A stretch of 64,000 nt of DNA from Candidatus Dojkabacteria bacterium (lineage in GTDB: Bacteria > Patescibacteriota > Dojkabacteria > J137), in contig JBDTVZ010000001.1 of the NCBI GenBank assembly GCA_040006935.1, positions 423,772-487,771 of the forward strand. The letters are read 5' to 3'. Shown here piece after piece: positions 12,819 to 58,630 of the stretch (positions are counted from its first letter, which is position 1; each line of letters opens with the position of its first letter). The notes below the pieces were generated by a model, which worked only from the letters and a program-made list of their open reading frames with translations, was not told the origin of the DNA and ran no database searches. A program made the position numbers and the translations under genes.

Positions 12819-13334
12819 TTAATTACTAGTAATATTATTACTTGTTAAGTCTATGCTAATTTGTTTAAAATTGCCAGTAGCAGTATGAGAAATTTTAATC
12901 GTGCAAGTTCCGGAAGAATTCACAACTCCGTTAGAATCCACAGTTACAATATCACCTGTTAATCTTGAGAAACCAATAGTATTGCAATTAACACTTGGCT
13001 GTATTGTTGAATGTAAAACCTCAATAGCTTTTGCATTCGCTGTATCGTCTACGCAAGTGACTCTAGATGCTCCTTTTATACATGTTTGGAAAGCGTAAGT
13101 TGTATTTCTAAAAGCAACAGTTACATAATCCTGGGCAACATTTGGAGAGCCAGGTTTTGTTGCTGAATTTCTGGATCTATTCTGTGCTACTTGTAGCGCC
13201 GAAGCAACATCTGAAAATGCATTTTGTAATTCAATTGTAGAACGTACTTGTGTAAGAGCATAAGTACTAAATCCCAATAAGACAGCCATTATACCCATGG
13301 CGATAATTGCTTCTAACAATGTAAATGCTTTCAT
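12819..13334 (-). CDS. prepilin-type minor pilin
   Basis: 171 aa; KAFTLLEAIIAMGIMAVLL prepilin N-terminus. Confidence 0.55.
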   Translation of the reverse strand: MKAFTLLEAIIAMGIMAVLLGFSTYALTQVRSTIELQNAFSDVASALQVAQNRSRNSATKPGSPNVAQDYVTVAFRNTTYAFQTCIKGASRVTCVDDTANAKAIEVLHSTIQPSVNCNTIGFSRLTGDIVTVDSNGVVNSSGTCTIKISHTATGNFKQISIDLTSNNITSN

Positions 13335-13335
13335 T

Positions 13336-14127: not shown

Positions 14128-14151
14128 TTCCTTCTTTATAAAAATTTAAAT

Positions 14152-14574
14152 TTAGAACCAGGAAGTAACAGGAGGACATTGCGAAGTACCCGAACCTTTT
14201 ACGCTACCTGACTCTAATAAAACGCAAAGTACAAAATCAGAATTTGAATTTACATTATAAAAGTACCTTGTTCCATTATTCGTTGAAGAACTAGCTGGAG
14301 AAAGAAATCCTTTTAAAGCGTAATTTTTAAATCCAACAATACTAACTTGACCTTGTCCAAAAACGACATTTGCTTTAGTAGGAAAACTTAAATTAGCTTT
14401 TCTATAATCATTTAAAATATTTGTAATTGCAGAAATTGAATTATTTCGCTCAACGTCACGTGAGTTTTTTTGAACTATTCCAATTCCAACAATTCCCAAA
14501 ATGATAAAGATGGCGGTAACCGCCATCCCTATCATTAGTTCTATTAATGTAAAGCCTTTTTTGTTCCTTCTCAT
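14152..14574 (-). CDS. type IV pilin
   Basis: 140 aa; KKGFTLIELMIGMAVTAIFI class III prepilin signal. Confidence 0.65.
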   Translation of the reverse strand: MRRNKKGFTLIELMIGMAVTAIFIILGIVGIGIVQKNSRDVERNNSISAITNILNDYRKANLSFPTKANVVFGQGQVSIVGFKNYALKGFLSPASSSTNNGTRYFYNVNSNSDFVLCVLLESGSVKGSGTSQCPPVTSWF

Positions 14575-14587
14575 TAATAAAATTTAA

Positions 14588-15022
14588 TTATTGTGGTGTT
14601 ACAGCTGTTGTGCAAGCAACGCCAGAATTACCTAATTGAATATCCCAACTTCCACCTTCGATTTTTGCACCAAAGCTATAACTTCCTCCATTAGAAGAGA
14701 AGCAATATTGTGTGTGTGAATCATCTGTAGTTGTAAGACTTGCTATCATTGGACCTTTTAAATCTACTATTTTACTTCCATTTATTGCTATTTGGTTTGT
14801 ACTAAATACAACTCCTCCGGATCCCGCAGATGGAAATACACCGAAGTTACTAAAGTATGTATTTATAGCTAGGTTTACAGAGTTAACAGTATCTCTTCTT
14901 TGAGTATTTCTCAAAGATTGTTGTACGATACTAATTCCTAAAATAGACATAGTCATAAGAACTCCGATAATACCCATTGCAACCATAAGCTCAATAAGTG
15001 TGAATGCTTTCTTTTGCTGCAT
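14588..15022 (-). CDS. type IV pilin (major pilin candidate)
   Basis: 144 aa; QQKKAFTLIELMVAMGIIGVLM prepilin signal; first pilin after pilC. Confidence 0.65.
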   Translation of the reverse strand: MQQKKAFTLIELMVAMGIIGVLMTMSILGISIVQQSLRNTQRRDTVNSVNLAINTYFSNFGVFPSAGSGGVVFSTNQIAINGSKIVDLKGPMIASLTTTDDSHTQYCFSSNGGSYSFGAKIEGGSWDIQLGNSGVACTTAVTPQ

Positions 15023-15046
15023 ATTACTTAATGTATAAAAAATAAA

Positions 15047-16279
15047 TTATTTATTAACAATCTGTCCAACTTGATAAATTGGAAGATAAATCGCTATTGC
15101 CATAAATCCAACTAAAACACCTACTATTACCAAGATAAAAGGCTCTATAAGTTTTGTCAAGTTTCCTGCAATTTGGTCAACTTCACTCTCATAAAAAGCT
15201 CCGAGATCTTTTAGTACTACGTCTACACTTCCAGCCTCTTCACCTGTTGCTATCATCCTTATAATTATTAATGGGAATGCATCCTTAGTATTATACTTAG
15301 CGATTGATAATGCAAGAGAGGAGCCTTTTGCTAAATCTTCTTTTGTTCCTACCAAAATATCTTTAAATACTGCATTACTTGTAGCTCTTGAGACGATATC
15401 CACAGCTTCTATAATTGGAATTCCGCTCACCATAAGCATGGATAAAATTCTGCAAAATTCTACAATTTCTATTTTTCTAATTAAATTTCCAAAAACAGGA
15501 ACTTTTAATTTGAACGAATCAAATTGCCTTCTTCCTGCAGGAGTTCCCACATAATATCTAAATAAAAGGACTATAGAGACAATAATTATTATTGCAACAA
15601 TTAAACTTGGTATGTTGGAAAAAATATCTCCAATTGCCACAAGAACTTGAGTCACAAAAGGTAACTCTGTTTCTCCTAAACTTAAGTAAAGCTGTTTTAC
15701 TTGAGGAACCATGAATACAATCATTAGAACTAACACAGCAATCATTACAACTAATATAATTGCCGGGTAAATTAAAGCACCAGAAATTTTTCCTCGAAGA
15801 TTTTTAGACTTTTCTAAATCATCTGCAATTTTTAATAATATTTCGTTTAAATTACCACTCTTTTCCCCAGCCGCCATTAAGTTAGATTGGATTTCATTTA
15901 AAATCCCACCTTCTTTTTTAAATGCATCGGATAGAGCAGTTCCAGCTTCAATTGCTTTGTAAATTCTTGTTAATTTCTCTTTTACAGAATCCTTATCTGC
16001 TTGTTGAACAAGAATATCTATCGCTTGAATAATTGGAATTCCAGCTGTAACCATTGTAGACAATTGCCTAATTAACACTACTTTCTCATCAAGGCTCATT
16101 CCTCCAATTTCTATATTTAAAAGTCTTTTAAAATTTACTCCAACACTTTCTTGAATAATTACAGGAACCATTCCTTGAGAAGTTATAAACTCCTGGACCT
16201 CATTCTGGCTCTCGGCACTTTTTATACCTTCCATTCTTTGTCCAGTATTTGTTACTGCTATGTATTTGTAGTCTGTCAT
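15047..16279 (-). CDS. pilC: type IV pilus platform protein PilC (GspF family)
   Basis: 410 aa; duplicated GspF-type domains with three TM segments. Confidence 0.8.
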   Translation of the reverse strand: MTDYKYIAVTNTGQRMEGIKSAESQNEVQEFITSQGMVPVIIQESVGVNFKRLLNIEIGGMSLDEKVVLIRQLSTMVTAGIPIIQAIDILVQQADKDSVKEKLTRIYKAIEAGTALSDAFKKEGGILNEIQSNLMAAGEKSGNLNEILLKIADDLEKSKNLRGKISGALIYPAIILVVMIAVLVLMIVFMVPQVKQLYLSLGETELPFVTQVLVAIGDIFSNIPSLIVAIIIIVSIVLLFRYYVGTPAGRRQFDSFKLKVPVFGNLIRKIEIVEFCRILSMLMVSGIPIIEAVDIVSRATSNAVFKDILVGTKEDLAKGSSLALSIAKYNTKDAFPLIIIRMIATGEEAGSVDVVLKDLGAFYESEVDQIAGNLTKLIEPFILVIVGVLVGFMAIAIYLPIYQVGQIVNK

Positions 16280-16286
16280 TTTTTAA

Positions 16287-17993
16287 TTAGCCTCTGTTTA
16301 ATAAAATATCAAAATCATTGGGTCTATTTGCAATAATTTTAGCTGCTTCTGCAGAAACTTTTCCTTCTTTAACTAATTTAACAAGTGACTTTTCCATTGA
16401 AATCATACCTAGATCAAAACCAGTCTGTATAATATTGTCTAATTGGATACCTTTACTTTCTCTTATTGTATTTTTTACAGCAGATGTTCCTATTAAAATT
16501 TCTAGAGACGCAACTCTAGAATTATTTAACGTTTTGACAAGTCTTTGTGATATTACTGCTTGTAGAACTGATGCTAATTGGACTTTAACTTGTTCTTGCT
16601 TTTCTGCGGGGAACATATCAATAATTCTATCAACTGTTTGTGATGCACTATTTGTGTGTAAAGTTGCGAAAACTAAGTGACCCGTTTCTGCAATTCTTAA
16701 TGCAGCTTCAACAGTTTCTAAGTCCCTCATTTCTCCTACAAGCACAATGTTAGGATCTTGTCTTAAAATTGCTCTAAGCGCATTTCCCCAAGATGTAAAG
16801 TCTTGCCCTGATTCTCTTTGATCCACCATGCTTAAAGATTTCGGAAATACATATTCAATTGGGTCTTCTAATGTAATTATATGTTTACTATCTGTAGTAT
16901 TTATGAGGTTAATGATAGACGCAATTGTAGTTGATTTTCCACTTCCTGTTGGACCTGTAACTAAAACCAATCCATTTGGATATTTAGAAAATTCTTTCAT
17001 AATTGGTGGCAAATCCAATTCTTCGAGAGTTGGAATTTTTTCCGAAATAACTCTAGCAGCAATAGCCAAAGTATTACTCTCTCTAAAAATATTAATTCTA
17101 AATCTTCTACTGCCCAGACTGTAGGTCATATCGTATTCATTAATGTCTTCAAGTTTAGTTTCTTTTCTACCTTTTAATAAATCCATAACATAGCCTTCCG
17201 AATCTGCTTGTGTAACAAGTGGTGATTGAATAGTTTTAAGTTCACCATTAACTCTAATCATTACTCTATAGCCTACAGAAATATGTACATCGGATGCATT
17301 TTGTTTCATAGCTTCTTCAAGAAAATCCTTCAAAACATATGTCTTATTCACTAGGTCACCACCTGGTGGAGGAAGAACTCCTGGTGTAGTGGACTGTGTA
17401 TTATTTATTTTATTTAATTTCTCATCAAGTTTATTGGAAGGGTCAATCATTGGCTGAGCTGCTGCCGTATTTTCTACAGGTTTAATTTCTCTTGCACCAT
17501 TGGCGGAAGTCATACTCACATTACTATTAAGTATTAAATCACTTGCTCCAGATCCCACTAAACTTTCGGACTCACTACTATTAAATTGAACATTATTTCC
17601 GACTGTTGGAGCGGGAACGCTTGCTTGAGGACTAGTACCAACTGCCTGTTTTACCTGATCTAAAATAGATCCCATAGATGTCTGAGTAGGCACGACCGGG
17701 CTTTCAGGAAGTGTTTTTGTAATATTATTAATTTCTTTAGTCAAATTATTAAGATCTGCTTTCTCATTCACAATTTGCTCAGTTGGAGTTTTGCTCATTT
17801 GGATGTTGGTATCAGGCGATGTCCGAATTTCTGGCTGACCGATCTCTTGAGCTTGTGGAATTACTGAGCTTACAGATCCTTTTAGTGGAGGAAGGGCAGC
17901 TGGCGTAATTGTTGTAGTTGTAACAGTGGTTTGAGTAGGCACCGCACCATCTCCAGCTTGATTATTTCTATTTGCTATATTTATTAATGGCAC
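16287..17993 (-). CDS. pilT: PilT-type retraction ATPase with ~210-aa disordered N-terminal extension
   Basis: Walker A GPTGSGKST, AETGHLVFATLHTNSA PilT/PilU signature; the N-terminal third is P/T/S/N-rich low complexity; GTG start. Confidence 0.8.
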   Translation of the reverse strand: MPLINIANRNNQAGDGAVPTQTTVTTTTITPAALPPLKGSVSSVIPQAQEIGQPEIRTSPDTNIQMSKTPTEQIVNEKADLNNLTKEINNITKTLPESPVVPTQTSMGSILDQVKQAVGTSPQASVPAPTVGNNVQFNSSESESLVGSGASDLILNSNVSMTSANGAREIKPVENTAAAQPMIDPSNKLDEKLNKINNTQSTTPGVLPPPGGDLVNKTYVLKDFLEEAMKQNASDVHISVGYRVMIRVNGELKTIQSPLVTQADSEGYVMDLLKGRKETKLEDINEYDMTYSLGSRRFRINIFRESNTLAIAARVISEKIPTLEELDLPPIMKEFSKYPNGLVLVTGPTGSGKSTTIASIINLINTTDSKHIITLEDPIEYVFPKSLSMVDQRESGQDFTSWGNALRAILRQDPNIVLVGEMRDLETVEAALRIAETGHLVFATLHTNSASQTVDRIIDMFPAEKQEQVKVQLASVLQAVISQRLVKTLNNSRVASLEILIGTSAVKNTIRESKGIQLDNIIQTGFDLGMISMEKSLVKLVKEGKVSAEAAKIIANRPNDFDILLNRG

Positions 17994-18112
17994 TATATTA
18001 AATTAAGAATTAACAATTATAAATTATGAGAAGAATTACGATTTATGAATTACTTTCCTAAATCATTTATTCTGGAATTCTCTTTTAATTTTTAATTGTT
18101 AACTTTTAATTG

Positions 18113-20038
18113 CTACTCGTTCTTGACTCTCAAGACTTCTTCGAGTGTTGTTACACCTTCGATTGCTTTTAAAAATCCATCCTGTATCATTGTAATCATT
18201 CCTTCGGAAATTGCAATATCATTGATTTCCTTGATAGTACTTTTCTTTACGATTGCTTGCGAGATAGTATCACTCATCTTTAATGCTTCAAATATACCTG
18301 TTCTACTTGTATACCCAGTGTTGTTACATTTCGGACAGCCTACCGCTTTATAAAGAATCACCTTATTAGTATTTTTATCAAAATGGAGTTTTAACTCATG
18401 CTCGGGTGTATAGATATTAAATTCATTCAATTTATCCAATTCTTTATGCATTTCTCCTAACATTTCTGGGGTAGCTTCAAAAGATTGCTTGCAATTAGTG
18501 CATAAAACCCTAACCAAACGTTGCCCAATAACTAAGTTGACAGTTGAGGAGAGCAAAAAAGGTTCAATTCCCATGTCTAGAAGACGAATAAAAGCGCCAC
18601 CCGAACTATTTGTATGAACCGTGGAAAGCACCAATCTACCTACTAAAGCTGATTGTATAGCGAGAGAAGCAGTTTCCGAATCTCGAATTTCTCCAACCAT
18701 GATAATGTCCGGGTCTTGCCTTAAGAAAGACCTTAATCCACTTGCAAATGTTAAACCAACCTCAGCATTAACCTGAACTTGATTAACTCCTTCAACTCGA
18801 ATTTCAACAGGATCTTCCAAAGTCATAATATTTACACCAACATTATTCAGAATTTTTAACGCACTTGATAAAGTTTGGGTTTTACCGCTTCCTGTTGGAC
18901 CCGTAACTAATATAACTCCTTGTGTTTTTTTCAATGCTTCTTTGAAACGTGCGAATGCGATTCCTCTCATGCCTAGTTCTTCCAGACTTAATGCACTTTC
19001 ATTCTTAGCCAAAAGCCTCATCACGATCTTTTCCCCATAAATGCTAGGCATAATGGAAACTCTAACATCAACAATTTGGTCTTCTGTTTTTATTTGGAAT
19101 CTCCCATCTTGAGGAACTCTTTTTTCGTCAATTTTTAAATCTGAAAGGATTTTTATTCTAGCAATTACAGAGTTCAATAAAGTCTTAGGAATAGTTAAAC
19201 CTTCAGTTAAAAGTCCTCGTACTCTGAATCTTACTACAACCATTTTCTCTCTTGGTTCAATATGAATGTCCGAAGCTTTATTCTTAACACCGTACTCCAG
19301 AATCATATTTACAATTCTGATGATTGGGGCATTTTCATTATCTGTAGACACATTCGCATCTTGATAACTTTTGTTTATATCTATTAAATTATCTCCTACT
19401 TCCTCCAACGCCTGATTTACATCATTACCTATTTGAGCTCCATATTTAGTATTGATAACATTATCAATTTCATCTTCCGCAGCGTAGTATGGTTCTATCT
19501 TTTTACCTATTATAGATTCTAGATATTTGATCTTTTGAAGATCAAGGGGATCCTTCATTGCCACCTTAACTTTTACTGGTAAGTCTTCAAAAACCACTGC
19601 CTGAGAAGATTTTGCAATATCTGCAGGTAATTTATTTAAAACTTCTAAATTAATAACTGCATCTGCTACATCTATATATCCAACTCCTCTCATTTCCGCG
19701 TATGTTTTCGCTAATTCTTTAAAAGTTATAGTGCTATGTTCTATTAGAACTTGATCTATAGTTTTGTTTGAATTAACTGCTTCAAATTTAAATGCGTTAT
19801 ACTGTTCATTAGTTATAATAGAACGAGCTAGGAGAGCATCTAGCAAATTTGATATGCCTCTAACAGAGACATTGCTCTGTGGAACAGCTCCAACGTTAGC
19901 TGGGGAAACGTTCACAGAAGGTTCAGAAGCGGTTTCACGACCTAGAACTTCCTTTGTTTTCTGCAGAATGTCATTTAAGGCTGCAGTTGAAACTGGAGGT
20001 GTAGGTTGGGTATTTTTATCTTGAAGAGCTGGATTCAT
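18113..20038 (-). CDS. pilB: type IV pilus assembly ATPase PilB (GspE family)
   Basis: 641 aa; N-terminal GSPII-type domain, Walker A GPTGSGKTQT, tetracysteine motif CTNC..CPKC. Confidence 0.85.
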   Translation of the reverse strand: MNPALQDKNTQPTPPVSTAALNDILQKTKEVLGRETASEPSVNVSPANVGAVPQSNVSVRGISNLLDALLARSIITNEQYNAFKFEAVNSNKTIDQVLIEHSTITFKELAKTYAEMRGVGYIDVADAVINLEVLNKLPADIAKSSQAVVFEDLPVKVKVAMKDPLDLQKIKYLESIIGKKIEPYYAAEDEIDNVINTKYGAQIGNDVNQALEEVGDNLIDINKSYQDANVSTDNENAPIIRIVNMILEYGVKNKASDIHIEPREKMVVVRFRVRGLLTEGLTIPKTLLNSVIARIKILSDLKIDEKRVPQDGRFQIKTEDQIVDVRVSIMPSIYGEKIVMRLLAKNESALSLEELGMRGIAFARFKEALKKTQGVILVTGPTGSGKTQTLSSALKILNNVGVNIMTLEDPVEIRVEGVNQVQVNAEVGLTFASGLRSFLRQDPDIIMVGEIRDSETASLAIQSALVGRLVLSTVHTNSSGGAFIRLLDMGIEPFLLSSTVNLVIGQRLVRVLCTNCKQSFEATPEMLGEMHKELDKLNEFNIYTPEHELKLHFDKNTNKVILYKAVGCPKCNNTGYTSRTGIFEALKMSDTISQAIVKKSTIKEINDIAISEGMITMIQDGFLKAIEGVTTLEEVLRVKNE

Positions 20039-33543: not shown

Positions 33544-34296
33544 TTATTGGATGTTAGTCCAGACATTAGTAACTTCAGATACTTCTTCTATTTTCTCGAT
33601 CAAACTCTCTGCTCTGCTTAAATCTTCTTCCCTTAATTCTAATAAATTCTTAGTTTGCATTATAAGCTTCGCTTCCATAATCTTAGCATTCATGTTCGAT
33701 GCAACCTCAACAATCTTACTATAGGCATCTCTAAATAAATTTTTATCTATTATTAATACTACAGAGGCAGTATCCTCTGTTTGTTCGGATTCGATATCCT
33801 CAATGCCTTGAATATCAAGTAGGTTCTCTTCGAGAGTTTGAATTTTGGTAGAGTCACCTTCAATATTTATAAAACCAACTTCAGAAAACTGCCAAGATAT
33901 AGAGCCTTCATTTGCCATCTTTCCACCGTTTTTATTAATTATTGTTTTGATATCTGTTAACGTTCGATTGGAATTATCACTTTCAGTATCTATTAGAATG
34001 CTAAAACCACCTGGTCCATAAGCCTCGTATGTATTTTCAGAAATAACGTCATCTCCTGACGAAGTTCCTCCTAAACCTCTTTTTACTGCACGCTCTATTC
34101 TATCATTTGTCATATTTGCCTCTTTTGCTTTAGAAATAGCAAGCCTAAGCATTGGATTAAAATTTGGATCCGAAGATCCACCAACTTTCACGGAGGTAAT
34201 GATGTCTTTAGATATCTTAGAAAGCAATGCTCCCTTTTTGGCATCCACAAGACCTTTTGTATGTTTTAACTTTGCCCATTTTGAATGGCCAGCCAT
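33544..34296 (-). CDS. yebC: YebC/PmpR family DNA-binding transcriptional regulator
   Basis: MAGHSKWAKLKH N-terminus hallmark; start moved to ATG 34296 (ORF-track TTG at 34302). Confidence 0.85.
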   Translation of the reverse strand: MAGHSKWAKLKHTKGLVDAKKGALLSKISKDIITSVKVGGSSDPNFNPMLRLAISKAKEANMTNDRIERAVKRGLGGTSSGDDVISENTYEAYGPGGFSILIDTESDNSNRTLTDIKTIINKNGGKMANEGSISWQFSEVGFINIEGDSTKIQTLEENLLDIQGIEDIESEQTEDTASVVLIIDKNLFRDAYSKIVEVASNMNAKIMEAKLIMQTKNLLELREEDLSRAESLIEKIEEVSEVTNVWTNIQ

Positions 34297-34421
34297 AATC
34301 AATTAGAAATTAAAAGTTATCAATTAAAAGATCCTTCGGCAAGCTCAGATGACAATTTGCCATGGTAAGCTTGTCTTGTCGGTCGCAGACATTTACGACA
34401 GGCAGGTCGAATCATAATCGA

Positions 34422-35780
34422 TTAAATATCCACGGAATCCTTACCCATGACCAATATTAGATCTCCTGAGTAATTATATTTATAATCCTCAAATGTGATT
34501 TTAACATTGCCTCTCAAAATTTTCTGAATCATAATAATATTATTTTTATATAAATCCACGTTTTTTGATGGCACATAAAGCAGAGTTGTTTGAACATCAC
34601 TTAAAGGATAGTTACCAAATTTAACAACATTTGCCCCAAGGTTCTGGAAAAATCTTCTTCGATTTCCTGCTAGTCCAGGTTGATCTGTTGCATTATAAAC
34701 TTCAATTGCTGCCTGCTCTTTCATAATATCTATATCTCGATAATATGCGCTTATATTCTCATCCATAAGGTTAAAGTCAGGATCCACACTTTTATCTAAT
34801 GGGTCGCCCTGATGCGTTCCATATTTATCGGATAGGAATCTACTATTTGAAAACACTATCTCGCTTGCATCTAAGTTGGATAGAAACCCTATGTACTCTT
34901 CTCTAGTTAAGTTGGTATTAAAAATATTACTAAAATCTTTAAAAGAAATTAAATTTCTAATATTTTTAATAGGTCCTTTTATTCCCTCCAAAAATGACTT
35001 TTGGAAATTTATTTGTCTTATAGTAATTACATCTCTGTCCTGAGTTTTATCAAAAAGGTAGTTAAAAAGATCATCACCTGCGAGTATATCTCCTTGTGTA
35101 AAAAGCCTACCATCGATAGAAAATGTATCCCGGGCTACATCAGTTATTTTATTATCATTAATATAGTTTTTGAGATTATCAGTATCGAATGCAACGTACC
35201 TATCGAGTCGAAGACCAAGATATTTTTGAATTTCTGTAATTACAGAATCAATCTTTGGGATACTATCATCTGTTTGAATATTGTTCCAAATACTTTCTAT
35301 CGTTACTTCCTCACCATCAAGTTCCAATTTGAAATTCGGACTTATTCCATATACTTTGACAAGCGAATTTTTAGAATCCACAGAAACGATATTTAAATAT
35401 TTTACATATTTATATGAATTGAGCCTACTCTCGAAACCTATATACGCTATGTTTATTGAAGAGTCAAATACTCTCTTTCTATAATTATCCGAACCCACAG
35501 TTAAGTAACCTTTTGGACTTATTGCAAAGTAAACTGTAAAGCTATAAATAATTAGGATTACTAATAGTAGAATGAATGTTGGAATTAGTAAGCCTCGAGT
35601 ATTTTTTGGAAGAGTTATTTTTGGTATTTTAAGTTTTCCTGTTGGTAATTCTTTTTTTTGAGTTGATCGGATTGAACGTAAGGACTTAACTATAGCGTTG
35701 GAAATTTTAGTATTTCTAAAATAAAAAAATATTTTATTTAGAATACTATTATTTTTTAAATTCGATTTATGTTTAGTCAC
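34422..35780 (-). CDS. membrane-anchored extracytoplasmic protein, possible LytR-CpsA-Psr (LCP) family
   Basis: 452 aa; N-terminal TM then large extracytoplasmic domain; LCP assignment by weak pattern only; GTG start. Confidence 0.35.
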   Translation of the reverse strand: MTKHKSNLKNNSILNKIFFYFRNTKISNAIVKSLRSIRSTQKKELPTGKLKIPKITLPKNTRGLLIPTFILLLVILIIYSFTVYFAISPKGYLTVGSDNYRKRVFDSSINIAYIGFESRLNSYKYVKYLNIVSVDSKNSLVKVYGISPNFKLELDGEEVTIESIWNNIQTDDSIPKIDSVITEIQKYLGLRLDRYVAFDTDNLKNYINDNKITDVARDTFSIDGRLFTQGDILAGDDLFNYLFDKTQDRDVITIRQINFQKSFLEGIKGPIKNIRNLISFKDFSNIFNTNLTREEYIGFLSNLDASEIVFSNSRFLSDKYGTHQGDPLDKSVDPDFNLMDENISAYYRDIDIMKEQAAIEVYNATDQPGLAGNRRRFFQNLGANVVKFGNYPLSDVQTTLLYVPSKNVDLYKNNIIMIQKILRGNVKITFEDYKYNYSGDLILVMGKDSVDI

Positions 35781-39964: not shown

Positions 39965-40158
39965 TCCTGAGCGACACTGAGCTTGTCGAAGTGAAGTCGA
40001 AGGATCTGGCTCTAATAAACTAGAATTAAAAAGGATCTGTAATTTGTATTACGGATCCTTTATTGTTATCTTTAATAAGAAATTCCCTCTCCTTTTAAGG
40101 AGAGGGTTAGGGTGAGGTCATACCGCCCAAAAAACAAGATATAGATTTTGGGCGGTCC
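39965..40158. repeat. GC-rich composite repeat (gagcgacactgagcttgtcgaagtgaagtcgaagg block; ccctctcctttTaaggagaggg hairpin; ttagggtgaggtcataccgcc; ccgcccaaaa..ttttgggcgg hairpin)
   Basis: 40083..40135 is near-identical to 4808..4855. Confidence 0.6.
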
Positions 40159-40174
40159 ATTTTATTAGGAAACT

Positions 40175-41239: not shown

Positions 41240-41246
41240 TCGTGAT

Positions 41247-41585
41247 GTCATTGCGATTCGTAGGGGAAAGATTTATCTTTCCCCTTATTCTTTTTGAATA
41301 AATAAAGCCTGAGTTTGGGTGTAAATTCTACATTTTGAAAAGGCCGTGTTACGGCCTTTTGCTTTTATTCCTCCTCCTCTTTTTAAGAGGAGGTCGGGAG
41401 GAGTTAATACCGCACCAAAAACCACAGCCAAGATCTTGTGCGGTCCTTTTTGGTATTCATAACTCCCCTAACCCCTCCCGTGTCTGCCGACAGGCAATCC
41501 CATCCTATGTTTGTGTGATTGCCACGTCGTCGCTTAAGCTCCTCCCCATGCCTGCGTGCGCAGTCAGGCAGGTCGCAATGACATC
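41247..41585. mobile_element. MITE-like GC-rich element (~340 bp) bounded by terminal inverted repeats GTCATTGCGA / TCGCAATGAC
   Basis: gtcattgcga at 41247 and tcgcaatgacatc at 41573; interior made of the same modules found at 54372..54616, 56109..56377, 8063..8372 and 48999..49450; no transposase ORF. Confidence 0.55.
41263..41296 (+). terminator. rho-independent terminator of prfA (inside repeat)
   Basis: ggggaaagatttatctttcccc hairpin followed by ttattcttttt. Confidence 0.6.
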
Positions 41586-42469
41586 TCATGAATATTCTCT
41601 AAAGCATCTAAATACTCTTCTACACTATTCTTTTTAGCTTCGAATAAAAGCGTGTGTATTCCTATTACTAGATGGTAAGCCTTGATTCTTTCATAATAAT
41701 TTTCTAAATTAAGTTTTGAATTACTGCTATTAAATTCTATATATTTTTGAATCAATAAGTCATTTTCCCCCCAGAAAGTTATCCAAGCCAAGTCCCACAA
41801 GAAATCTCCGTACATTGATTCGGACCAATCAATAATCCCAGAAATTTTGACATCTTTTACAATTATATTAGTTTTCCCAAAATCCCCATGTAATAAATGA
41901 AATGAGTTAGGAAGGTATTTTTTAAGATTATTAAATTGATTTAGTAAGTTATTTAAATGATCTAAATTCAAGTAACTAGCACTTTTTGAAACACCATCCC
42001 ATGAATCTTTTTCTACATATCCAGCCAGAGTATCTATCCAGGAATTATCAGGAGCGATCATATCTTTATTCCATTTCCCGAATCTTGACGTTGATATCTC
42101 TGATGTATGAATAGAATTCATTGATTCGATTAATGAAGATATTAATCTTTCTTGAGACGATTCATTTAGTTTTGACATTTGAACTCCCTCTACTCTTCTT
42201 GAAATTGAAAAGGAATAGTCCTCAAAGTGTCCATTTAATAATATTTTTGGCGTTAATATATGCGGGAATTTTCTATGGATAATATCTTCCTTATCAAACC
42301 CTAAAGAAGTTTTATTATTAACCCTTAATATTAAATCCTGGTCATCTGCTTTGAAAGAAAATGCTTGAGAGAATTCCCCGGAAGTTATAATTTCAAGATC
42401 TGAAATCGAATCAAACTTTGAATGTAATAATTCTTGAATTTTTTGTATTTCTATTTGTGTTTTAAACAT
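41564..42469 (-). CDS. APH/choline-kinase-like phosphotransferase family protein
   Basis: 301 aa; Brenner motif HGDFGKTNIIV and DWSESMYGDFLWD metal-binding motif. Confidence 0.6.
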   Translation of the reverse strand: MFKTQIEIQKIQELLHSKFDSISDLEIITSGEFSQAFSFKADDQDLILRVNNKTSLGFDKEDIIHRKFPHILTPKILLNGHFEDYSFSISRRVEGVQMSKLNESSQERLISSLIESMNSIHTSEISTSRFGKWNKDMIAPDNSWIDTLAGYVEKDSWDGVSKSASYLNLDHLNNLLNQFNNLKKYLPNSFHLLHGDFGKTNIIVKDVKISGIIDWSESMYGDFLWDLAWITFWGENDLLIQKYIEFNSSNSKLNLENYYERIKAYHLVIGIHTLLFEAKKNSVEEYLDALENIHEMSLRPA

Positions 42470-42515
42470 AAATTTATATTAGCATCAAAAATATAAACCA
42501 GTGTTAAAATAAATT

Positions 42516-43115
42516 ATGGAAGAAAGACATCTATACCAAACTCGAGGAACAAGAAGATTTTATGAGGCAAGGAGAACTTTTATCAATTCTCTGGGGTATA
42601 GAGATATTCAACAATTACAGGAAGAAACTTTTTCTAAAGGAGAATCTCCAGTAAGACTTTCCCATATTCTCGAGTATTATATTCCCTTATTAATAAAGCA
42701 AGGGATTGTATGTAGAATTGCTGGGAAAGAAAATTATGTGATTCAATCAGCTGAAAATAGTGAATTATGGTTTTGCACTACAGAAGACCTTGGATATAAC
42801 AACTTAGCTGAGGGTTCAAGAGGTGCATACATTAGAAACTACGTTATTCATCCTGATTTTATTAATTTTATAAATAAACATAGAAACCGAGATCATAATA
42901 TTCCTGAAGGAGCTGTCGAGATTAATAAATTCCTTACCGATTATTGTTCTGAGAGAGGAATTAACATCCCTAGGGCTACTATTCAAAGTGCTAGAAACCA
43001 AGGTAATATAAAAGTCTTAGCAAAAGGACCTCGAAATGTTACTTATGGTGATAAAAATGATCTTATTAGGTACGCCGAGAACTATATTCAGAGAATTACT
43101 ACTGAGGAGCCTTAA
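42516..43115 (+). CDS. hypothetical protein
   Basis: 199 aa ORF, divergent from the APH-like gene. Confidence 0.45.
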   Translation: MEERHLYQTRGTRRFYEARRTFINSLGYRDIQQLQEETFSKGESPVRLSHILEYYIPLLIKQGIVCRIAGKENYVIQSAENSELWFCTTEDLGYNNLAEGSRGAYIRNYVIHPDFINFINKHRNRDHNIPEGAVEINKFLTDYCSERGINIPRATIQSARNQGNIKVLAKGPRNVTYGDKNDLIRYAENYIQRITTEEP

Positions 43116-48889: not shown

Positions 48890-48998
48890 GGAAAGTTTTT
48901 AGTTTAAGTTATTAGTTTAAAAATTATACCTTAAATTTTAGTTTTTTAAGAAAAAGAATAATTTATTTGCCTTAATTAGGCTTAAAGTTAGCCTTAGG

Positions 48999-49450
48999 AA
49001 AAGGCCGTGTTACGTCCTAATTCTTATGTCATTTCTAGCAAGTATTCCCCTCTTTTTAACCTGCCCGCCAAATAAAAACTTTCAGATAGTTTACTTAGGC
49101 AGGCGGGGATGGGTTAGAGGAGTTATGAATATCAAAAAGGACCGCACAAAATCTTTGATTTAGTTTTGGTGCGGTAGAAATCCTCCGTCCAGCTAAAACT
49201 GGCCACCTCCTTTAAAAAGGAGGAATTCTCCCTTTACCTGACAATAGACAGGTTAAAAGGAGAGGTATTCATTCGTAGGGGACGCATTTATGCGTCCCTC
49301 GTTAAGTGCCACGCCAAAGAGTAATCCAACTTCATGCGGTATTAAACAGTCACGCTCAAAAGATGAGGTGGTACTGTCATGAATAGCATAATATCTTTGT
49401 ATTACGTAGATGAGATTGCTTCTCCGCCAAGGCGGATCGCAATGACATTT
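48999..49450. repeat. GC-rich composite repeat cluster (ggccgtgttacgtcc module; cctgcccgcc..ggcaggcggg hairpin; accgcac..gtgcggt hairpin; cctccgtccagctaaaactggccacctcctttaaaaaggagga module; cattcgtagggga + hairpin; tgagattgc..cgcaatgacat end)
   Basis: Modules match those at 8063..8372, 41247..41585 and 54372..54616; the spurious GC-rich ORF 49253..49453 lies inside. Confidence 0.55.
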
Positions 49451-51914: not shown

Positions 51915-52138
51915 AATTTATGGTTAATAAATAATCTAGTAATGATAATATAATAAGCCAAGTAACTCAATTGGAAAATTCTAAACTCTAAGCACTAAGT
52001 TCTAAACAATTTCCAAACTCAAAATTCAAATATTTTAAATTTTGTTATTTGGAAATTAGAATTTGTTTAGAATTTAGAAATTAGGATTTAGGATTTTGTT
52101 AACTTGTTCAAAGTGACAGAAAATCGTAGAATATATTT

Positions 52139-52357: not shown

Positions 52358-52413
52358 AATTAACCTGGTTTCAAAACGGGATTGCTTCACTTCGCTCGCA
52401 ATGACACCGCAGC

Positions 52414-54185: not shown

Positions 54186-54293
54186 ATTCCTTTATAAATA
54201 ATAAATAATTTATTTCTGACCTAAGCCAGAAAATCTCTTCCGCAAGTGAGGTTTTTTAAACCAAGGAAAATACCTGCGTGTTGGTATGATTGG

Positions 54294-54323
54294 ATTATAT
54301 CAGATGAGTCAATGGTCGAGCAA
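54294..54323 (-). promoter_or_regulatory. candidate rpsB promoter (TTGCTC-18-TATAAT on minus strand) with ~105-nt leader
   Basis: Reverse complement of 54294..54323 reads ttgctcgaccattgactcatctgaTATAAT. Confidence 0.35.
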
Positions 54324-54371
54324 TAGAATTAAAATAATGAAGAAATGAAGTGAATCTCAGTATATTAAATC

Positions 54372-54616
54372 TGGGATTCGTAGGGAACAGGCATGCCTGT
54401 TCCTTTTATTCAAATAATCAAGGCGTGAGTTTGGCGTAATTTCAGCAACTAAACCAGGCCGTATTACGTCCTATTCCGTTAGGTGTCATTGCGAGGACGA
54501 TCCGCCTTTGGCGGAGAGGACGTGGCAATCTCACACGAATGAATATGATGTAAATAAATTCTTTTGAATGAGATTGCCACGTCGTCCTGATTCTCAGGAC
54601 TCCTCGCAATGACATC
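54372..54616. repeat. GC-rich composite MITE-like element, left inverted copy (gggattcgtaggg + hairpin; gagtttggcgtaatttcagcaactaaaccaggccgtattacgtcc; TIR sub-element gtcattgcgagga...tcctcgcaatgacatc)
   Basis: Reverse-complement match to 56109..56377; the internal ~130-bp sub-element (54487..54616) has 13-bp terminal and 15-bp sub-terminal inverted repeats. Confidence 0.65.
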
Positions 54617-54685
54617 GCAGTTGCGGACCGTGAGATTCACAAAACATTATGATATTATGAAAAGTTTATCCAAATTATTCTATTT

Positions 54686-55045
54686 ATGGAGGAGAACCTC
54701 AGACAAAATTCACTAGATTTAGCAAAGCTTCACAGCATTATTGACCACCAAATATCTGCACTGAGAGTAATTACACCCAATTATTCTATTGGCTATCCAG
54801 TAAATTTTGCAAAATATAGAGAGGTTTGGAATTACGACATTGGCAGAAGTATGTTTTTAGAAGATATAAGAAGAACGATAGAGATTCTTAGAGAAAATTA
54901 CACTGATATTTCGAGCGAAAAAGTTGATGAATTACTAAACCAAGCCTGCATTTTAGTTCAAAAGATATTTGACCAAGAATGCAAATCAGTTCTAGAAGAG
55001 TTAGTTACTACAATAACAAAATTGAAAAACGAAGGTGAAGGTTGA
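54686..55045 (+). CDS. hypothetical protein (cassette gene)
   Basis: 119 aa ORF with ATG start, followed by a strong terminator. Confidence 0.5.
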   Translation: MEENLRQNSLDLAKLHSIIDHQISALRVITPNYSIGYPVNFAKYREVWNYDIGRSMFLEDIRRTIEILRENYTDISSEKVDELLNQACILVQKIFDQECKSVLEELVTTITKLKNEGEG

Positions 55046-55061
55046 GATTTCTAAGGTACTT

Positions 55062-55089
55062 CCCCTCGCCTTTGAGGACGAGGGGTTTT
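55062..55089 (+). terminator. rho-independent terminator
   Basis: cccctcgcctttgaggacgagggg hairpin + tttt. Confidence 0.8.
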
Positions 55090-55352
55090 GACACTATTTC
55101 TTTATGGTAGGAGCGCTTGAAGTCTTCAATACACTACCACCCGGCATCACTATAGGCTGAGTCGCCATATAGTTTTCTCCTTAAATAAAATCGGTCAAAT
55201 GGTGATTTATTCACCAATATAATTATACCATAAAATCTGGCGATTATCTATATCTGATAGTAGAAATGCGAATATTTAATCGAAGAAATTAGGCGTAAAA
55301 AAAGAACACTTTCGTGCTCTTTGGGTTAAGATTTGATTCTATAAATGCTAAA

Positions 55353-55380
55353 CGCCAAGGGGTTGCCTTGGCGTTTTTTC
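55353..55380. terminator. terminator hairpin, possibly bidirectional (ends the minus-strand small-gene transcript)
   Basis: cgccaagg-ggtt-gccttggcg followed by ttttttc on plus; on minus the hairpin sits just 3' of the small ORF at 55400. Confidence 0.6.
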
Positions 55381-55399
55381 GGCTTTCGCCGAGAGACAG

Positions 55400-55546
55400 T
55401 TACTTGGTATGCTTTTTTGGAAGAGCCACGCTGGGTTGGACCGCAACCTTTGTGATCTTTTCCACAACCTGCCCTACAAGATAATCATGAACGATTTTCT
55501 TCTCCTTCGGTGACAATGCAATCATTGTAGAACGGTGACCACCCAT
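55400..55546 (-). CDS. small basic protein, paralog 1 (48 aa: MGGHRSTMIALSPKEKKIVHDYLVGQVVEKITKVAVQPSVALPKKHTK)
   Basis: ATG preceded by AAAGGAGA SD at correct spacing; leader shares cgacagttaa with paralog 2; shared N-terminal MxG[HR][RH]xT and C-terminal S[VI]A[LM]PKK; not in ORF track (<60 aa). Confidence 0.45.
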   Translation of the reverse strand: MGGHRSTMIALSPKEKKIVHDYLVGQVVEKITKVAVQPSVALPKKHTK

Positions 55547-55697
55547 GGAAATCTCCTTTAATTAACTGTCGTTAAAATTTTCGTGCCCTCAACAGTGTGA
55601 TTTTGATTGTGGGAACGAACTTATTAAGTACAAATTTTTCATCTTATACTCACTAAGTCCGTCCTCACGACGGGTTACGCCGTGAGGTTTGTGACAG

Positions 55698-55832
55698 TTA
55701 CTTACGCTTCTTTGGCATAGCTATACTAGGACGAATCCTAGCAATTGTGATGGAAACTACCTTAGGCTTACGAACATAGGGGTGTAAAAACCCTCTAGTC
55801 CAAGCATCTGAAGTTCCATGTCTCCCAGCCAT
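55698..55832 (-). CDS. small basic protein, paralog 2 (44 aa: MAGRHGTSDAWTRGFLHPYVRKPKVVSITIARIRPSIAMPKKRK)
   Basis: ATG preceded by GAAGGAGTG SD; driven by the consensus promoter at 55916..55944; a hairpin cctcacggcgtaacccgtcgtgagg follows the stop. Confidence 0.45.
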   Translation of the reverse strand: MAGRHGTSDAWTRGFLHPYVRKPKVVSITIARIRPSIAMPKKRK

Positions 55833-55915
55833 AATTCACTCCTTCTTAACTGTCGATTTTAAGCTTCTGTAAATTGTTAGATCGTCCTAAGACTCACATA
55901 ACAATTTACATATAT

Positions 55916-55944
55916 AATATATACCTAAAATGGGAATTTGTCAA
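55916..55944 (-). promoter_or_regulatory. sigma70 consensus promoter on minus strand (TTGACA-17-TATATT)
   Basis: Reverse complement of 55916..55944 is ttgacaaattcccattttaggtaTATATT; lies ~85 nt upstream of small gene 2. Confidence 0.5.
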
Positions 55945-56108
55945 GTCTTACAAACCTTCAATACAGTTACAGGTGTGTATATTTTACAATGTCGCCGAAA
56001 AATATCGTCAGAATACCTAAAGTTAATAGGCTGTAGCACGGCCTGGTTTATCCCCTGTTGGAGCAGGTTTGCAACCTGCTCCTTGTCTTTCGTCCCAACC
56101 AATGCGAT

Positions 56109-56377
56109 GTCATTGCGAGGAAGTCTGTCCTGAGCTTGTTGAAGGATGGCAATCTCATCACCCCGTTTCCCAACGGGATTGCTTCGTCCTCACTTCGTTC
56201 GTCCTCGCAATGACAACTAACGGAATAGGCTGTGGCACCAGTAGGCGCTAATCTACATCTCCTCACTGCGTTCGTCGTGTATCTTTGGGCAGCCTGGTTT
56301 AGTTGCTGAAATTACGCCAAACTCAGGCTTTTGTTTAGAATAAAGGAAAAGATATATCTTTTCCCTACGAATCCCAG
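56109..56377. repeat. GC-rich composite MITE-like element, right inverted copy
   Basis: Reverse complement carries gggattcgtaggg + hairpin, gagtttggcgtaatttcagcaactaaaccaggc, ctattccgttag, then gtcattgcgagga...tcctcgcaatgac (56109..56215). Spurious ORFs 56048..56266(-) and 56069..56251(+) lie inside. Confidence 0.65.
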
Positions 56378-56419
56378 GTTAATCTGAGATTCAATTCATT
56401 CCTTCATTTTTTCATTCTT

Positions 56420-58630
56420 TCATTCCTCTGCAGTCGGAGCTTTTTTCTTCTTAATTCTAATAATATCCTTCTCTTTCGGATAATCTGGGTGAGCCCAGAA
56501 GAAACCGAATTTACCTTTTTTAATTAGGTAATCTCTTTTATCTTTAGTTTGTGGGATTTCTCCGTACATTTCGATAAGAAGATCTCTTTTTGGAGTTAGT
56601 GGTTTTGCATCTTTAACCTTTGGATAGTCTGGGTGTGCCCAGAAGCTTCCAAAACGACCTGTTTTTAATACGTATTCTCTTTTATCTTCTGTCATTGGAA
56701 CAGGCTCGTATCGGGTTAAGTCAATTGGTTTTGCTGCTTCGTTTGATTCTCCTTCTAAGCTTTTCATTCCCTTACATTTTGGATAATCAGTACAGCTTAG
56801 GAATCTTCCGTATCTTCCTAATTTTATTATCATTGGTTTTCCGCATTCAGGACATTTTTCATCGCTTTTTCCTAATTCTGTAAACTCTTTTCGAGGGATA
56901 TTCTTATCTTGTCTTGCTACTTCTTTTTCAAATGGGAAGTAGAAATCTCCTAACATTTTTACCCAATCTAGCTTTCCTTCTGCGACTTTGTCTAAGTTAT
57001 CTTCCATTCCAGCTGTAAATCCATAATTTACAATTTGCTCAAAATACTTAACTAACAAGCTATTTACTACTCTACCTGTATCTGTTGGCCTTAAGTACTT
57101 ATTTTCTGCAAGGGCATATTTTCTAACTAATAGTGTAGATATTATGCTCGCATAGGTAGATGGCCTTCCAATCCCTAGCTCCTCAAGCTTTTTGATTAAT
57201 GTTGCTTCGCTATATCTAGCAGGTGGTTGAGTGAAGTGTTGGATTCCATCAAACTCTTTTTGTCCTAACTTATCTCCGATTTGCATTTCTGGCAATATGG
57301 TTTCGTTAAGCTTTTCTTTCATCACTTTTAAGTAACCATCGAAGATTACTGTTTTACCGTTTGCTTTGAATAAGTACTTATCAATTTCTACGTATAATGA
57401 CAAATTAAGGAATTCTGCTGGTTTCATTAAAGATGACAGCGCTTTCGCCCAGATTAAGTTATATACTGCCGCCTGCTCACCTTCTAGCCCCAAATCTGCA
57501 GCCTTTTTAAAGAAGCTAGTTGGCCTAATACATTCGTGAGCCTCTTGAGCAGATTTATTTGATGAAGCATATACATTTAATTTTTCTGGAAGGTAATTCT
57601 TTCCAATATTTTTCTCGATATATTTAATAGCCTCATTAATAGCAGGCTGAGACATATTTACAGAATCTGTTCTCATGTAAGTTATAAATCCAGCTTCGTA
57701 AAGTTTTTGTGCAATAGACATTGCTCTTTTTGCAGAGTACCCCAATACATTCACGGCTGCTTGTTGGAAAGTACTCGTAATAAACGGTGGCCTTGGATTA
57801 CGTTTACTTTGAGATTTTTCTATATTTGAGATTACCCACTTTTCATCTTTTACATCTTCAACAACTTTAGTTGCTTCTTTTTGAGTCTTTAATTCTGGAG
57901 CTTTTTTAGAAATTTTGAAAAGTTCAAATTTTATTAAATTTTCTGGAACTTGAATTTTTTCTTCTTCCTCGTCTTTATTAGTAAGTTTATAGTTGATTTT
58001 ATAGTTTGGCTTTGTATCTTTATGGTCCGCGTAGGCCTCAACACTCCAGTACTCATCCGATTTGAATGCTTCCCTTTCTAACTCTTTTTCTACCACTAAT
58101 CTTAAAGCTGCAGATTGAACTCTACCTGCAGATAGTCCGAATGTAATTTTCTTCCAAAGAAGTGGAGATAGTTTATAACCTACTAATCTATCTAGAAACC
58201 TTCTAGCTTGTTGAGCATTAACTAAATCCATATTAATATCTCGAGGATGTGCAATTGCTTCTTGAATTGCCTCTTTTGTAATTTCGTGGAATACAATTCT
58301 TTCAACTGGTCTTTTTCCTTTATGTTTTCCGTTTTCATCAATTACACCAAGCTCTTTTGCAATGTGCCAACCAATAGCTTCTCCTTCTCTATCCAAGTCG
58401 GAAGCAATTATTAATTTATCTGCACCTTTAAAAGCTTTCTTAATATCTGCTAATGCTTCTTTTTTTGTTATTACATAAGTAGGTTTAAAATCATGCTCTA
58501 CGTCTATACCTGTTTCAGACTTTGGAAGGTCTACCACATGGCCTTTAGATGCAATTACATGATACTCACTACCCAAGTATTTCTTGATTGTCTTCGATTT
58601 TGATGGTGACTCTACTACAACTAAGTTCAT
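56420..58630 (-). CDS. topA: DNA topoisomerase I
   Basis: 736 aa; Toprim, catalytic Tyr domain, degenerate C-terminal repeats (GRFGSFWAHPDYPKVKD, GKFGFFWAHPDYPKEKD). Confidence 0.95.
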   Translation of the reverse strand: MNLVVVESPSKSKTIKKYLGSEYHVIASKGHVVDLPKSETGIDVEHDFKPTYVITKKEALADIKKAFKGADKLIIASDLDREGEAIGWHIAKELGVIDENGKHKGKRPVERIVFHEITKEAIQEAIAHPRDINMDLVNAQQARRFLDRLVGYKLSPLLWKKITFGLSAGRVQSAALRLVVEKELEREAFKSDEYWSVEAYADHKDTKPNYKINYKLTNKDEEEEKIQVPENLIKFELFKISKKAPELKTQKEATKVVEDVKDEKWVISNIEKSQSKRNPRPPFITSTFQQAAVNVLGYSAKRAMSIAQKLYEAGFITYMRTDSVNMSQPAINEAIKYIEKNIGKNYLPEKLNVYASSNKSAQEAHECIRPTSFFKKAADLGLEGEQAAVYNLIWAKALSSLMKPAEFLNLSLYVEIDKYLFKANGKTVIFDGYLKVMKEKLNETILPEMQIGDKLGQKEFDGIQHFTQPPARYSEATLIKKLEELGIGRPSTYASIISTLLVRKYALAENKYLRPTDTGRVVNSLLVKYFEQIVNYGFTAGMEDNLDKVAEGKLDWVKMLGDFYFPFEKEVARQDKNIPRKEFTELGKSDEKCPECGKPMIIKLGRYGRFLSCTDYPKCKGMKSLEGESNEAAKPIDLTRYEPVPMTEDKREYVLKTGRFGSFWAHPDYPKVKDAKPLTPKRDLLIEMYGEIPQTKDKRDYLIKKGKFGFFWAHPDYPKEKDIIRIKKKKAPTAEE

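Follow-up and report, generated by a model that had tools for sequence, protein, structure and literature searches.

The window analysed here is a 64-kb stretch of a contig (JBDTVZ010000001.1) of a Candidatus Dojkabacteria bacterium, in which short GC-rich palindromic repeats, sorted below into the families M1, M2, M3 and H, recur between the genes. Its GC content is 33%, and the genes are ordinary housekeeping genes (recG, spoU, S16, gyrBA, ruvABC, dnaB, L31, prfA, dnaX, frr, tsf, rpsB, topA, dprA and mreB), together with tRNAs and a type IV pilus cluster. Genes were annotated by Pfam scans of 41 open reading frames (ORFs) and by synteny annotation over 29-64 kb. Repeated modules were detected by self-comparison of the window; the chance expectation for pattern counts was obtained from dinucleotide shuffles, and fold energies (in kcal/mol) were compared with shuffles and are given as z. 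Four syntenic assemblies served as relatives: L121 (prfA 77% identical), L243 (TopA 87% identical), L123/L244 (two stretches of one 215-kb contig, 67-73% identical) and L245 (71% identical). The DNA identity to the relatives is only ~75-82%.

Repeat families in the intergenic spacers

The modules listed in the original prediction were found where it had placed them, in at least eight spacers, and each of them exceeds the chance expectation. The spacers concerned are recG-spoU (4.7k), the 3' end of S16 (8.0-8.4k), L31-prfA (40.1k), prfA-APH (41.2-41.6k), the region upstream of dnaX (48.9-49.5k), the 3' end of tsf (52.4k), the region upstream of S2 (54.3-54.6k) and the 3' end of TopA (56.0-56.4k); the spacers at 34.3k and 62.8k hold modules only weakly. 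Together the nested hairpin repeats make up ~3% of the stretch, with 9 M1, 6 H, ~6 M3 and 4 M2 copies per 64 kb. The presumed terminal inverted repeat (TIR) TGTCATTGCGAGGA occurs four times exactly and six times with at most two mismatches (0.35 expected), but at 41247 just the 11 nt TGTCATTGCGA are present. The pattern GATTGCYWC-N-CGCAATGAC is found five times (none in shuffles), the TACCGC…GCGGTCC hairpin five times exactly (8064-, 8335+, 40121+, 41408+ and 49139-, with a degenerate copy at 4846; none expected), GGCCGTnnTACGKCCT three times (none expected; weaker copies at 56028-, 56228- and 62870) and TTCGTAGGGR four times (0.07 expected). The cctgcc…ggcagg hairpins share a common sequence at 8184-8210 and 41550-41572, whereas those at 49062 and 34377 are looser.

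Long matches link distant spacers. The segments 4804-4881 and 40081-40160 are 86% identical over 80 nt, and 8064-8165 and 49139-49235 are 85% identical over 102 nt. Three further self-matches are inverted, namely 41397-41479 with the reverse complement of 49106-49186 (85.5%), 54325-54459 with that of 56292-56418 (83% over 135 nt) and 41252-41328 with that of 56308-56376. Some modules are short and simple terminators share the same spacers, as would be expected if there were no family at all and the islands were independent GC-rich hairpins (such as simple terminators) or had arisen as artefacts when the genome was assembled from a metagenome. This explanation is hardly tenable: matches of 80-135 nt at 83-88% identity connect distant spacers, the pattern counts far exceed those of shuffles, the flanking gene order is conserved across the four related assemblies, and independent assemblies and finished plasmids contain the units too. 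The counts and the cross-genome matches have already refuted it.

Besides the TIRs, treated below, two parts of the original prediction went too far. Nearly every GC-rich island was said to be modular; 43 stretches reach a GC content of at least 50%, but only about one third of them are modules, the others being coding sequence or tRNA genes. The elements were also said to supply the terminators of prfA and tsf. Terminator-like hairpins, belonging to M2 and M3, do follow prfA, whereas tsf has a terminator of its own with an M1 unit merely placed after it. The description as a non-coding, intergenic, modular and palindromic family stands, and REP/BIME-type (repetitive extragenic palindrome/bacterial interspersed mosaic element) is a good description of it. 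The possibility that the modules are fragments of one known structured RNA was checked against Rfam, and no match was obtained: with Rfam 15 only tRNAs passed in the window and 12 related or unit-rich loci, and nothing credible emerged when the islands and a tandem M1 array were scanned at permissive thresholds. The element strings tested were absent from the literature searched, which returned primer coincidences only; nothing relevant was found in literature pairing Patescibacteria with miniature inverted-repeat transposable elements (MITEs).

Structure of the M1 unit and of the composite islands

The 'TIR' (about 13-14 nt) is the 5' end of a longer unit, M1, which has the form (T)GTC-AT-xyz-GA-[variable hairpin]-x'y'z'-AT-C(YC) and measures 25-65 nt. 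In viral contexts TGTCATTGCGAGGA is nearly always followed by a short variable hairpin and then by GACG(A/T)(A/G)GCAATC, and the repeated entity is therefore the complete unit. The window contains nine M1 units (0.7 in shuffles), six of which form three inverted doublets, the other three being single. Overall, M1 is met alone, as an inverted doublet with a spacer, in tandem and nested. All units are extragenic with the sole exception of one overlap with a coding 3' end. The simple terminal repeats of the original prediction are thus whole, self-contained hairpin units, which also occur singly and in tandem.

Since the units themselves were picked by complementarity, covariation was assessed from a table of 5' against 3' types, which is free of circularity. 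The 5-bp closing helix covaries. Among all sequences compared that have a recognisable tail, the 5' type TGC is followed by its own complement in 250 of 259 cases; the corresponding figures for TCT, TCC and CCT are 16/19, 13/14 and 6/7. Within the window the types TGC, CTC and TTC occur. Partners in a doublet may differ in closing-helix type, which indicates that the conserved structure is the fold within one unit. Inside the closing helix a conserved frame, G-GA…GA-C, surrounds the inner hairpin, and its sequence could allow tandem G·A pairs. The inner hairpin itself is hypervariable (229 distinct inner segments, only 12 of them without a hairpin). G-N-A triloops, mostly closed by C-G, account for 63 of 128 triloops as against 12 of 83 in shuffles. 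Hairpins of the d(GCGAAGC)/GCGAAGC type are the classic extra-stable DNA mini-hairpins, and the enrichment of C-G-closed GNA triloops points to a single-stranded DNA form.

The other families are hairpins as well. M2 consists of (G)ATTCGTAGGG(G/A) or TTCGTAGGG(G/A) followed directly by a hairpin, so that GTAG stands at the foot of the palindrome. M3 is the hairpin AGGCCGTnnTACGnCCT, and a conserved stretch of ~30 nt usually stands before it. H is larger (80-130 nt, six copies); it combines the TACCGC…GCGGTCC hairpin with one of CCTCC-type/GGAGG-type, and a third hairpin is present in some copies. When the six copies are aligned, both stems change in compensating pairs (CCCTCTCC/GGAGAGGG, CCTCCTC/GAGGAGG and CCCCTCTT/AAGAGGGG). 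Beyond the window, the composite M3+M1 pattern gave no matches in a metagenome scan. A tightened H-hairpin pattern gave none in viral contigs and two in metagenomes, one by chance and one a plausible single copy, and a genome-contig scan with TACCGC-N16-34-TTGKGCGGTCC gave 119 single matches, chance-like and mostly in GC-rich genomes. The plausible copy, the hairpin TACCGCACCGAAACC…TTTGTGCGGTCC at 100-137 of the JGI contig Ga0068867_100010094 (L247; AT-rich, 33% GC), is the only plausible H match beyond the window, and the contig is unrelated.

By nesting in one another the units build foldback composites of 100-350 nt (Table 1). The doublet 4721-4802 folds at -38.8 kcal/mol (z = -7.7), 54484-54614 at -75.8 kcal/mol (z = -12.7), and 56108-56215 with z = -4.8. 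The two H copies near 8 kb, being inverted with respect to each other, form a large H doublet, and the island 8055-8380 as a whole is one large foldback (-146.6 versus -94.7 kcal/mol in shuffles, z = -11.4). In the island 41246-41585 (-131.5 versus -88.1 kcal/mol, z = -8.5) the two ends, an M1 half and a full M1, pair and enclose M2, M3 and H. A composite of ~290 nt (M2, a conserved segment, M3, TATTCCGTTAG and an M1 doublet) is present twice, inverted; the M3 of the right arm has a 52-nt insertion in its loop, and its M2 lies ~45 nt downstream of the TopA stop.

Table 1. Repeat units and composite islands of the window
Feature	Position	Strand	Composition and setting
M1 units	4721, 4766, 41518, 49415, 52381, 54485, 54573, 56109, 56178	+, -, -, -, -, +, -, +, -	Start positions
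M1 inverted doublet	4721-4802		4721-4745 (+, CTC) and 4766-4801 (-, TTC); begins 13 nt past recG stop
H, copy 1	4804-4881	+	CCCTCTCC/GGAGAGGG hairpin, degenerate TACCGC hairpin; ends 15 nt before spoU start
H	8064-8158	-	TACCGC…GCGGTCC hairpin 8064-8101, GGCCAGC/GCTGGAC extra hairpin, CCTCC/GGAGG hairpin
Centre of island-B foldback	8159-8275		ggcacgacctgcc…ggcaggagtgcc hairpin 8177-8216; left half of 8245-8334 palindrome
H	8276-8372	+	Inverted relative to 8064-8158
Degenerate M1-like unit	34329-34410		GATCCTTCGGCAAGCTCAGATGACA, then hairpin; spacer of ORFs 33544-34302 and 34422-35780; weak member
H	40081-40160	+	Ends 15 nt before prfA start codon
Composite foldback island	41246-41585		Between prfA and APH kinase
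 left M1 half	41246-41256		TGTCATTGCGA
 M2	41255-41284		GTAG-hairpin
 M3	41338-41360
 H	41366-41482
 complete M1	41518-41582	-	With nested cctgc…gcagg hairpin
M3 and truncated M1 start	48976-49033	+	GGCCGTGTTACGTCCT 49003-49018, then TGTCATT; upstream of dnaX
Hairpin and H	49062-49235	-	cctgcccgcc…ggcaggcgggg hairpin, then H 49100-49235 (-)
M2-like unit	49268-49300	+	cattcGTAGGGGACGCATTTATGCGTCCC
Single M1	49415-49446	-	GTCATTGCGATCCGCCTTGGCGGAGAAGCAATC; just 3' of the terminator of a 68-aa gene
Single minimal M1	52381-52405	-	GTCATTGCGAGCGAAGTGAAGCAATC; directly after tsf terminator
Long composite arm, left	54325-54614	+	M2 54373-54403, TGAGTTTGGCGTAATTTCAGCAACTAAACC segment, M3 54456-54472, TATTCCGTTAG, M1 doublet 54484-54614
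Extra M3 copy	56028-56051	-	aaaccaggccgtgctacagcctat
Long composite arm, right	56108-56418	-	Inverted; M1 doublet 56108-56215, M3 56228-56301, M2 56345-56375
Diverged M3-containing segment	62844-62893	+	~60% identical; weak member

Several islands touch the ends of genes closely. Right after prfA, M2 and M3 both have terminator-like scores on the + strand, two H copies end 15 nt before the start codons of spoU and prfA, and the reading frame of the APH kinase (…MRCHCDLPD*) has its last codons and stop at 41564-41582, within an M1 unit. Together with the M1 unit behind the tsf terminator, these positions fit tolerated insertions with occasional co-option.

Some features of the window stand apart from the GC-rich families. 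A second palindromic family, AT-rich and ~110-120 nt long, has copies at 5339-5447 and 51975-52097 (79% identical), each shortly before a start codon (5453 and 52140). Its copy in the frr-DUF1232 spacer is missing from the orthologous spacer of L121 and L243 (alignment A4), a clean case of presence and absence. The 3' part of topA contains a direct repeat (56465-56544 and 56609-56688, 76% identity), which is a duplicated C-terminal peptide motif (…GRFGSFWAHPDYPK… and …GKFGFFWAHPDYPK…); this repeat is at the protein level and outside the element family. The type IV pilus cluster (minus strand, 9157-20038) encodes PilM, pseudopilins with an N-terminal methylation motif and a prepilin peptidase, besides PilC-, PilT- and PilB-like ORFs; the names pilC, pilT, pilB, gyrB and gyrA (large ORFs, 15-27 kb) were assigned from sequence reading only.

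Mobility, turnover and distribution

The doublets look MITE-like in being inverted, in their TG…CA termini and in their unrelated spacer, as do the two inverted ~290-nt composite arms around a 1.5-kb segment. If the repeats were classical MITEs, they would be deletion derivatives of a DDE-type insertion sequence with the TIRs TGTCATTGCGAGGA / TCCTCGCAATGACA, moved by cut-and-paste by the transposase of a parent that would carry TGTCATTGCGAG ends. We regard this as improbable. No target-site duplication was found in 44 opposite-orientation pairings of units, some of them overlapping, which comprise the three doublets of the window, one in L121 and 40 pairings in viral contigs; even with offsets allowed, flanking direct repeats reach 0-3 nt at best. 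Single units and same-strand tandem runs are common, and each 'TIR' folds on itself with a covarying closing helix whose type may differ between doublet partners. Transposase-, integrase- or HUH/Y1-type Pfam families are missing among the window ORFs that were scanned or synteny-annotated, and no transposase-type family appears in the gene tables of the relatives. Among the ORF clusters of the 120 viral loci, named from their sequences as portal, capsid and tail-type, there is no recurring transposase-like cluster. Finally, the arms do not enclose cargo. The 1.5-kb segment contains ORF119, which has a positional homologue in L243 (weak, 28% identity, E = 6.5e-7), and the segment is therefore resident DNA; a transposon with cargo between the 54.3k and 56.4k arms is thereby ruled out. 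Overall, the MITE picture of the original prediction is not supported. The units do not form an array of clustered regularly interspaced short palindromic repeats (CRISPR) either: in the window they have mixed orientations and no regular spacing, and in phages the tandem runs have conserved 12-14 nt linkers instead of CRISPR-type unique spacers.

Comparison with the relatives showed that orthologous spacers differ in element content, which is turnover between relatives. Upstream of dnaX, L121 has M3 and an M1 doublet, L243 has M3 and a doublet of another type, and the window has the nested composite. In L243 a GTCATCCTGA…TCAGGATC unit lies 13 nt past the TopA stop, at the position of M2 in the window. 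In the L123/L244 lineage the spacers are short and 43 kb contain no units. A 62-nt insertion in L121 (6459-6528), with TTT on both flanks, is a hairpin framed by GA…GA (GATGAGTCCCGTTAATCGGGACGAAGAG), and L243 is without it at the same place (alignment A3).

The islands coincide with places of variable gene content between the genomes. Only in the window genome is prfA separated from the S41 protease by an APH-family kinase and a 199-aa ORF (no Pfam match), at 41564-43115; L121 has no intervening gene and L123 an unrelated 279-aa ORF. The TopA-rpsB spacer (54186-56419 in the window, 8591-9775 in L243, 12220-13427 in L244 and 3334-7202 in L245) is a hot spot. It contains ORF119 and small ORFs in the window. 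In L243 it has a 130-aa ORF (the weak ORF119 homologue) and a 60-aa ORF, and L244 and L245 have a DUF4037 gene there that may or may not be accompanied by small ORFs. Two of the small ORFs in the window, 55400-55546 (-) and 55698-55832 (-), are paralogous (48 and 44 aa, 33% identical) and end in …PS(V/I)A(L/M)PKK…. Both possess a strong ribosome-binding site and have a hairpin behind them; at 55944-55916 there is a promoter-like TTGACA-17-TATATT. Neither ORF has a Pfam match or a counterpart in the relatives.

M1 is not private to this genome. It is found in three Dojkabacteria species and also in Alpha- and Gammaproteobacterial plasmids and many phage contigs. The plasmid pOB3b1 of the cultured Methylosinus trichosporium OB3b has an M1 doublet in a convergent spacer near 100.2 kb and another unit after fabD; further matches lie in a Halomonas replicon, where doublets occur as well, in Methylocystis plasmids and in a few uncultured gut phages. 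Reference plasmid and phage collections yielded only a handful of matches, all unannotated, but the scan of viral contigs (IMG/VR) with TGTCATTGCGAGGA gave at least 120 loci, in contigs with GC contents of 0.34 to 0.67. M1 is not a universal background feature, as judged from 879 kb of 119 assorted genomes, in which 13 M1-like units were counted versus 7 in shuffles. Three unit-rich viral contigs were read in detail; the portal, terminase, capsid and tail proteins recognised in them suggest tailed phages. In phage contigs (L019, L103, L008, L066 and L059) as many as 17 M1 units occur within 13 kb, and the units of one contig share a strand (17/0, 12/0, 0/9 and 8/0), and tandem runs are of 3-5 units with a period of ~40 nt and conserved linkers CCGTnnCCCnnCT. 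A replication-strand rule was considered: the units follow the C-rich strand in the phage contigs and do not in the window.

Selection for a function in RNA or transcription, in place of mobility, was also weighed. The units could be intrinsic terminators, elements protecting mRNA 3' ends, RNase processing sites or a new protein-binding RNA motif (a tandem G·A internal loop) common to bacteria and phages, and we consider this explanation rather unlikely. The units are indeed placed at the ends of genes, M2 and M3 resemble terminators, the helices covary around the conserved internal loop G-GA…GA-C, M3 has been kept upstream of dnaX in three species, and the phage units lie between genes, often just before a ribosome-binding site. 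Yet both orientations occur with respect to neighbouring genes (antisense in L008 and L019, sense in L103), and inverted doublets show both strands equally. A consistent sense orientation, the sign of an RNA function, is ruled out by the units antisense to genes in several phage contigs. The nesting, the presence and absence between relatives and the unit that overlaps the 3' end of a coding sequence are what selfish insertions typically show, the C-G-closed GNA triloops are DNA-type stable hairpins, and Rfam gave no match even at permissive thresholds.

Interpretation and relation to known systems

Taken together, the islands are probably clusters of self-folding, non-coding palindromic units of at least four families, a functional counterpart of REP/BIME or of REPINs (inverted REP doublets) that is handled as single-stranded DNA. 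The observations behind this reading are the repetition, the unit structure with its covariation, the doublets and nesting, the absence of duplications, the turnover and the wide distribution, and it is the REP/BIME-like reading, rather than the MITE one, that they support. An enzyme provided in trans, most likely an HUH/Y1 nuclease of the REP-associated tyrosine transposase (RAYT) or IS200/IS605 kind, which would leave no target duplication, would copy or move the units in the form of single-stranded DNA hairpins. The units would accumulate at tolerated sites, just past stop codons or terminators and in spacers of variable gene order, and some M2 and M3 copies may now act as intrinsic terminators.

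Several observations weigh against a REP-like nature. M1 starts with GTCAT and not with GTAG, and no RAYT, IS200-like or other candidate enzyme is present among the window ORFs scanned or synteny-annotated. In the phage contigs the M1 strand is the C-rich strand, whereas the three single M1 units of the window are on the G-rich strand. M3 stands at the same relative position upstream of dnaX in the window, L121 and L243, which looks like vertical conservation of a functional hairpin and not like mobility. For the GC-rich modules there is no precise pair of empty and filled sites among these relatives of ~75-82% identity. REP sequences are usually lineage-specific, and the fact that M1 is conserved in phages and across phyla agrees with a functional motif, or with a conserved partner that binds it, no less well than with a classical REP.

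This last point leads to a wider, and in our estimate less likely, reading of M1 as a cross-phylum motif of candidate-phyla-radiation (CPR) bacteria, Proteobacteria and many tailed phages that is recognised by a conserved partner. The partner might be a new HUH-type or other single-strand nuclease spread by phages, or M1 might be an RNA processing or protein-binding site. The reading is suggested by the covarying 5-bp closing helix, the fixed G-GA…GA-C loop, the freely varying GNA-capped hairpin and the fixed GTC…ATC flanks. If it is true, M1 represents an unrecognised and very widespread class of elements; if a partner enzyme is found, M1 would be a REP-like system across phyla and phages.

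We know of no report of REP-like repeats in small CPR genomes. Those of the window occupy the ends of genes, seem to provide terminators, have altered the C-terminus of one protein and mark spacers that differ in gene content; they are therefore likely to shape genome evolution and to break metagenome assemblies. M1 also yields many spurious 'hypothetical proteins' in databases. False ORFs from the M1 units of the window carry the motifs CHCE…, VIARS…, …LAMT and …PRNDT, and neither Pfam nor NCBIfam has a family for false ORFs translated from units; a named M1 model would clean annotation.

Among known repeats, the nested small dispersed repeats and MITEs of cyanobacteria, which Elhai et al. 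reportedly described in Genome Res in 2008, resemble the islands in being tiny hairpin-associated units inserted into other repeats to give modular, nested composites. They have other sequences and belong to unrelated organisms. Rickettsia palindromic elements (RPE) and the GC clusters of yeast mitochondria are GC-richer palindromes that invade AT-rich reduced genomes and can enter coding sequence, and the C-terminus of the APH kinase, encoded by an M1 unit, is a likeness to these. RPE differ in being mostly in frame within genes and unrelated in sequence, whereas here there is one coding overlap at the extreme 3' end. The ends of IS200/IS605 elements and of their miniature derivatives, the palindrome-associated transposable elements (PATEs), have subterminal imperfect hairpins handled as single-stranded DNA, as is proposed for the units, and share with them the lack of target duplication and a strand bias. 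In the islands the unit is a single hairpin and not a pair of left and right ends with a fixed target tetranucleotide, and no TnpA or TnpB is encoded among the ORFs covered by the annotation.

The closest resemblance is to REP/BIME and REPIN sequences. REPs are imperfect hairpins with internal mismatches, whose single-stranded form is bound and cut by a Y1/HUH enzyme; the RAYT recognises, on single-stranded DNA, mismatched hairpins plus a 5' GTAG (PMC3479197). REPINs are inverted REP doublets, and the RAYT gene is flanked by them (PMC3337134; PMC3116915); REP singlets exist as well and are possibly decayed remnants (PMC3337134, PMC3116915). Like the REP/BIME sequences of E. coli, the units are short, imperfect, extragenic palindromes, located for the most part at the 3' ends of genes or between convergent ones (PMC3479197). 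REPs measure about 20-40 nt, M1 units 25-65 nt. Both occur as singles, spaced inverted pairs and clusters, lack target duplications and have conserved mismatches in the stem. The GTAG at the foot of the hairpin is shared by M2; M1 has (T)GTCAT instead, is conserved across phyla and in phages, and is unaccompanied by a RAYT gene among the annotated ORFs of the window. From the REPINs of Pseudomonas fluorescens the repeats differ in that partners of a doublet may be of unlike closing-helix types and that same-strand tandem runs occur. The organisation typical of REPINs, in which two inverted units with a spacer form a long hairpin, is present in the three doublets of the window and in one of L121.

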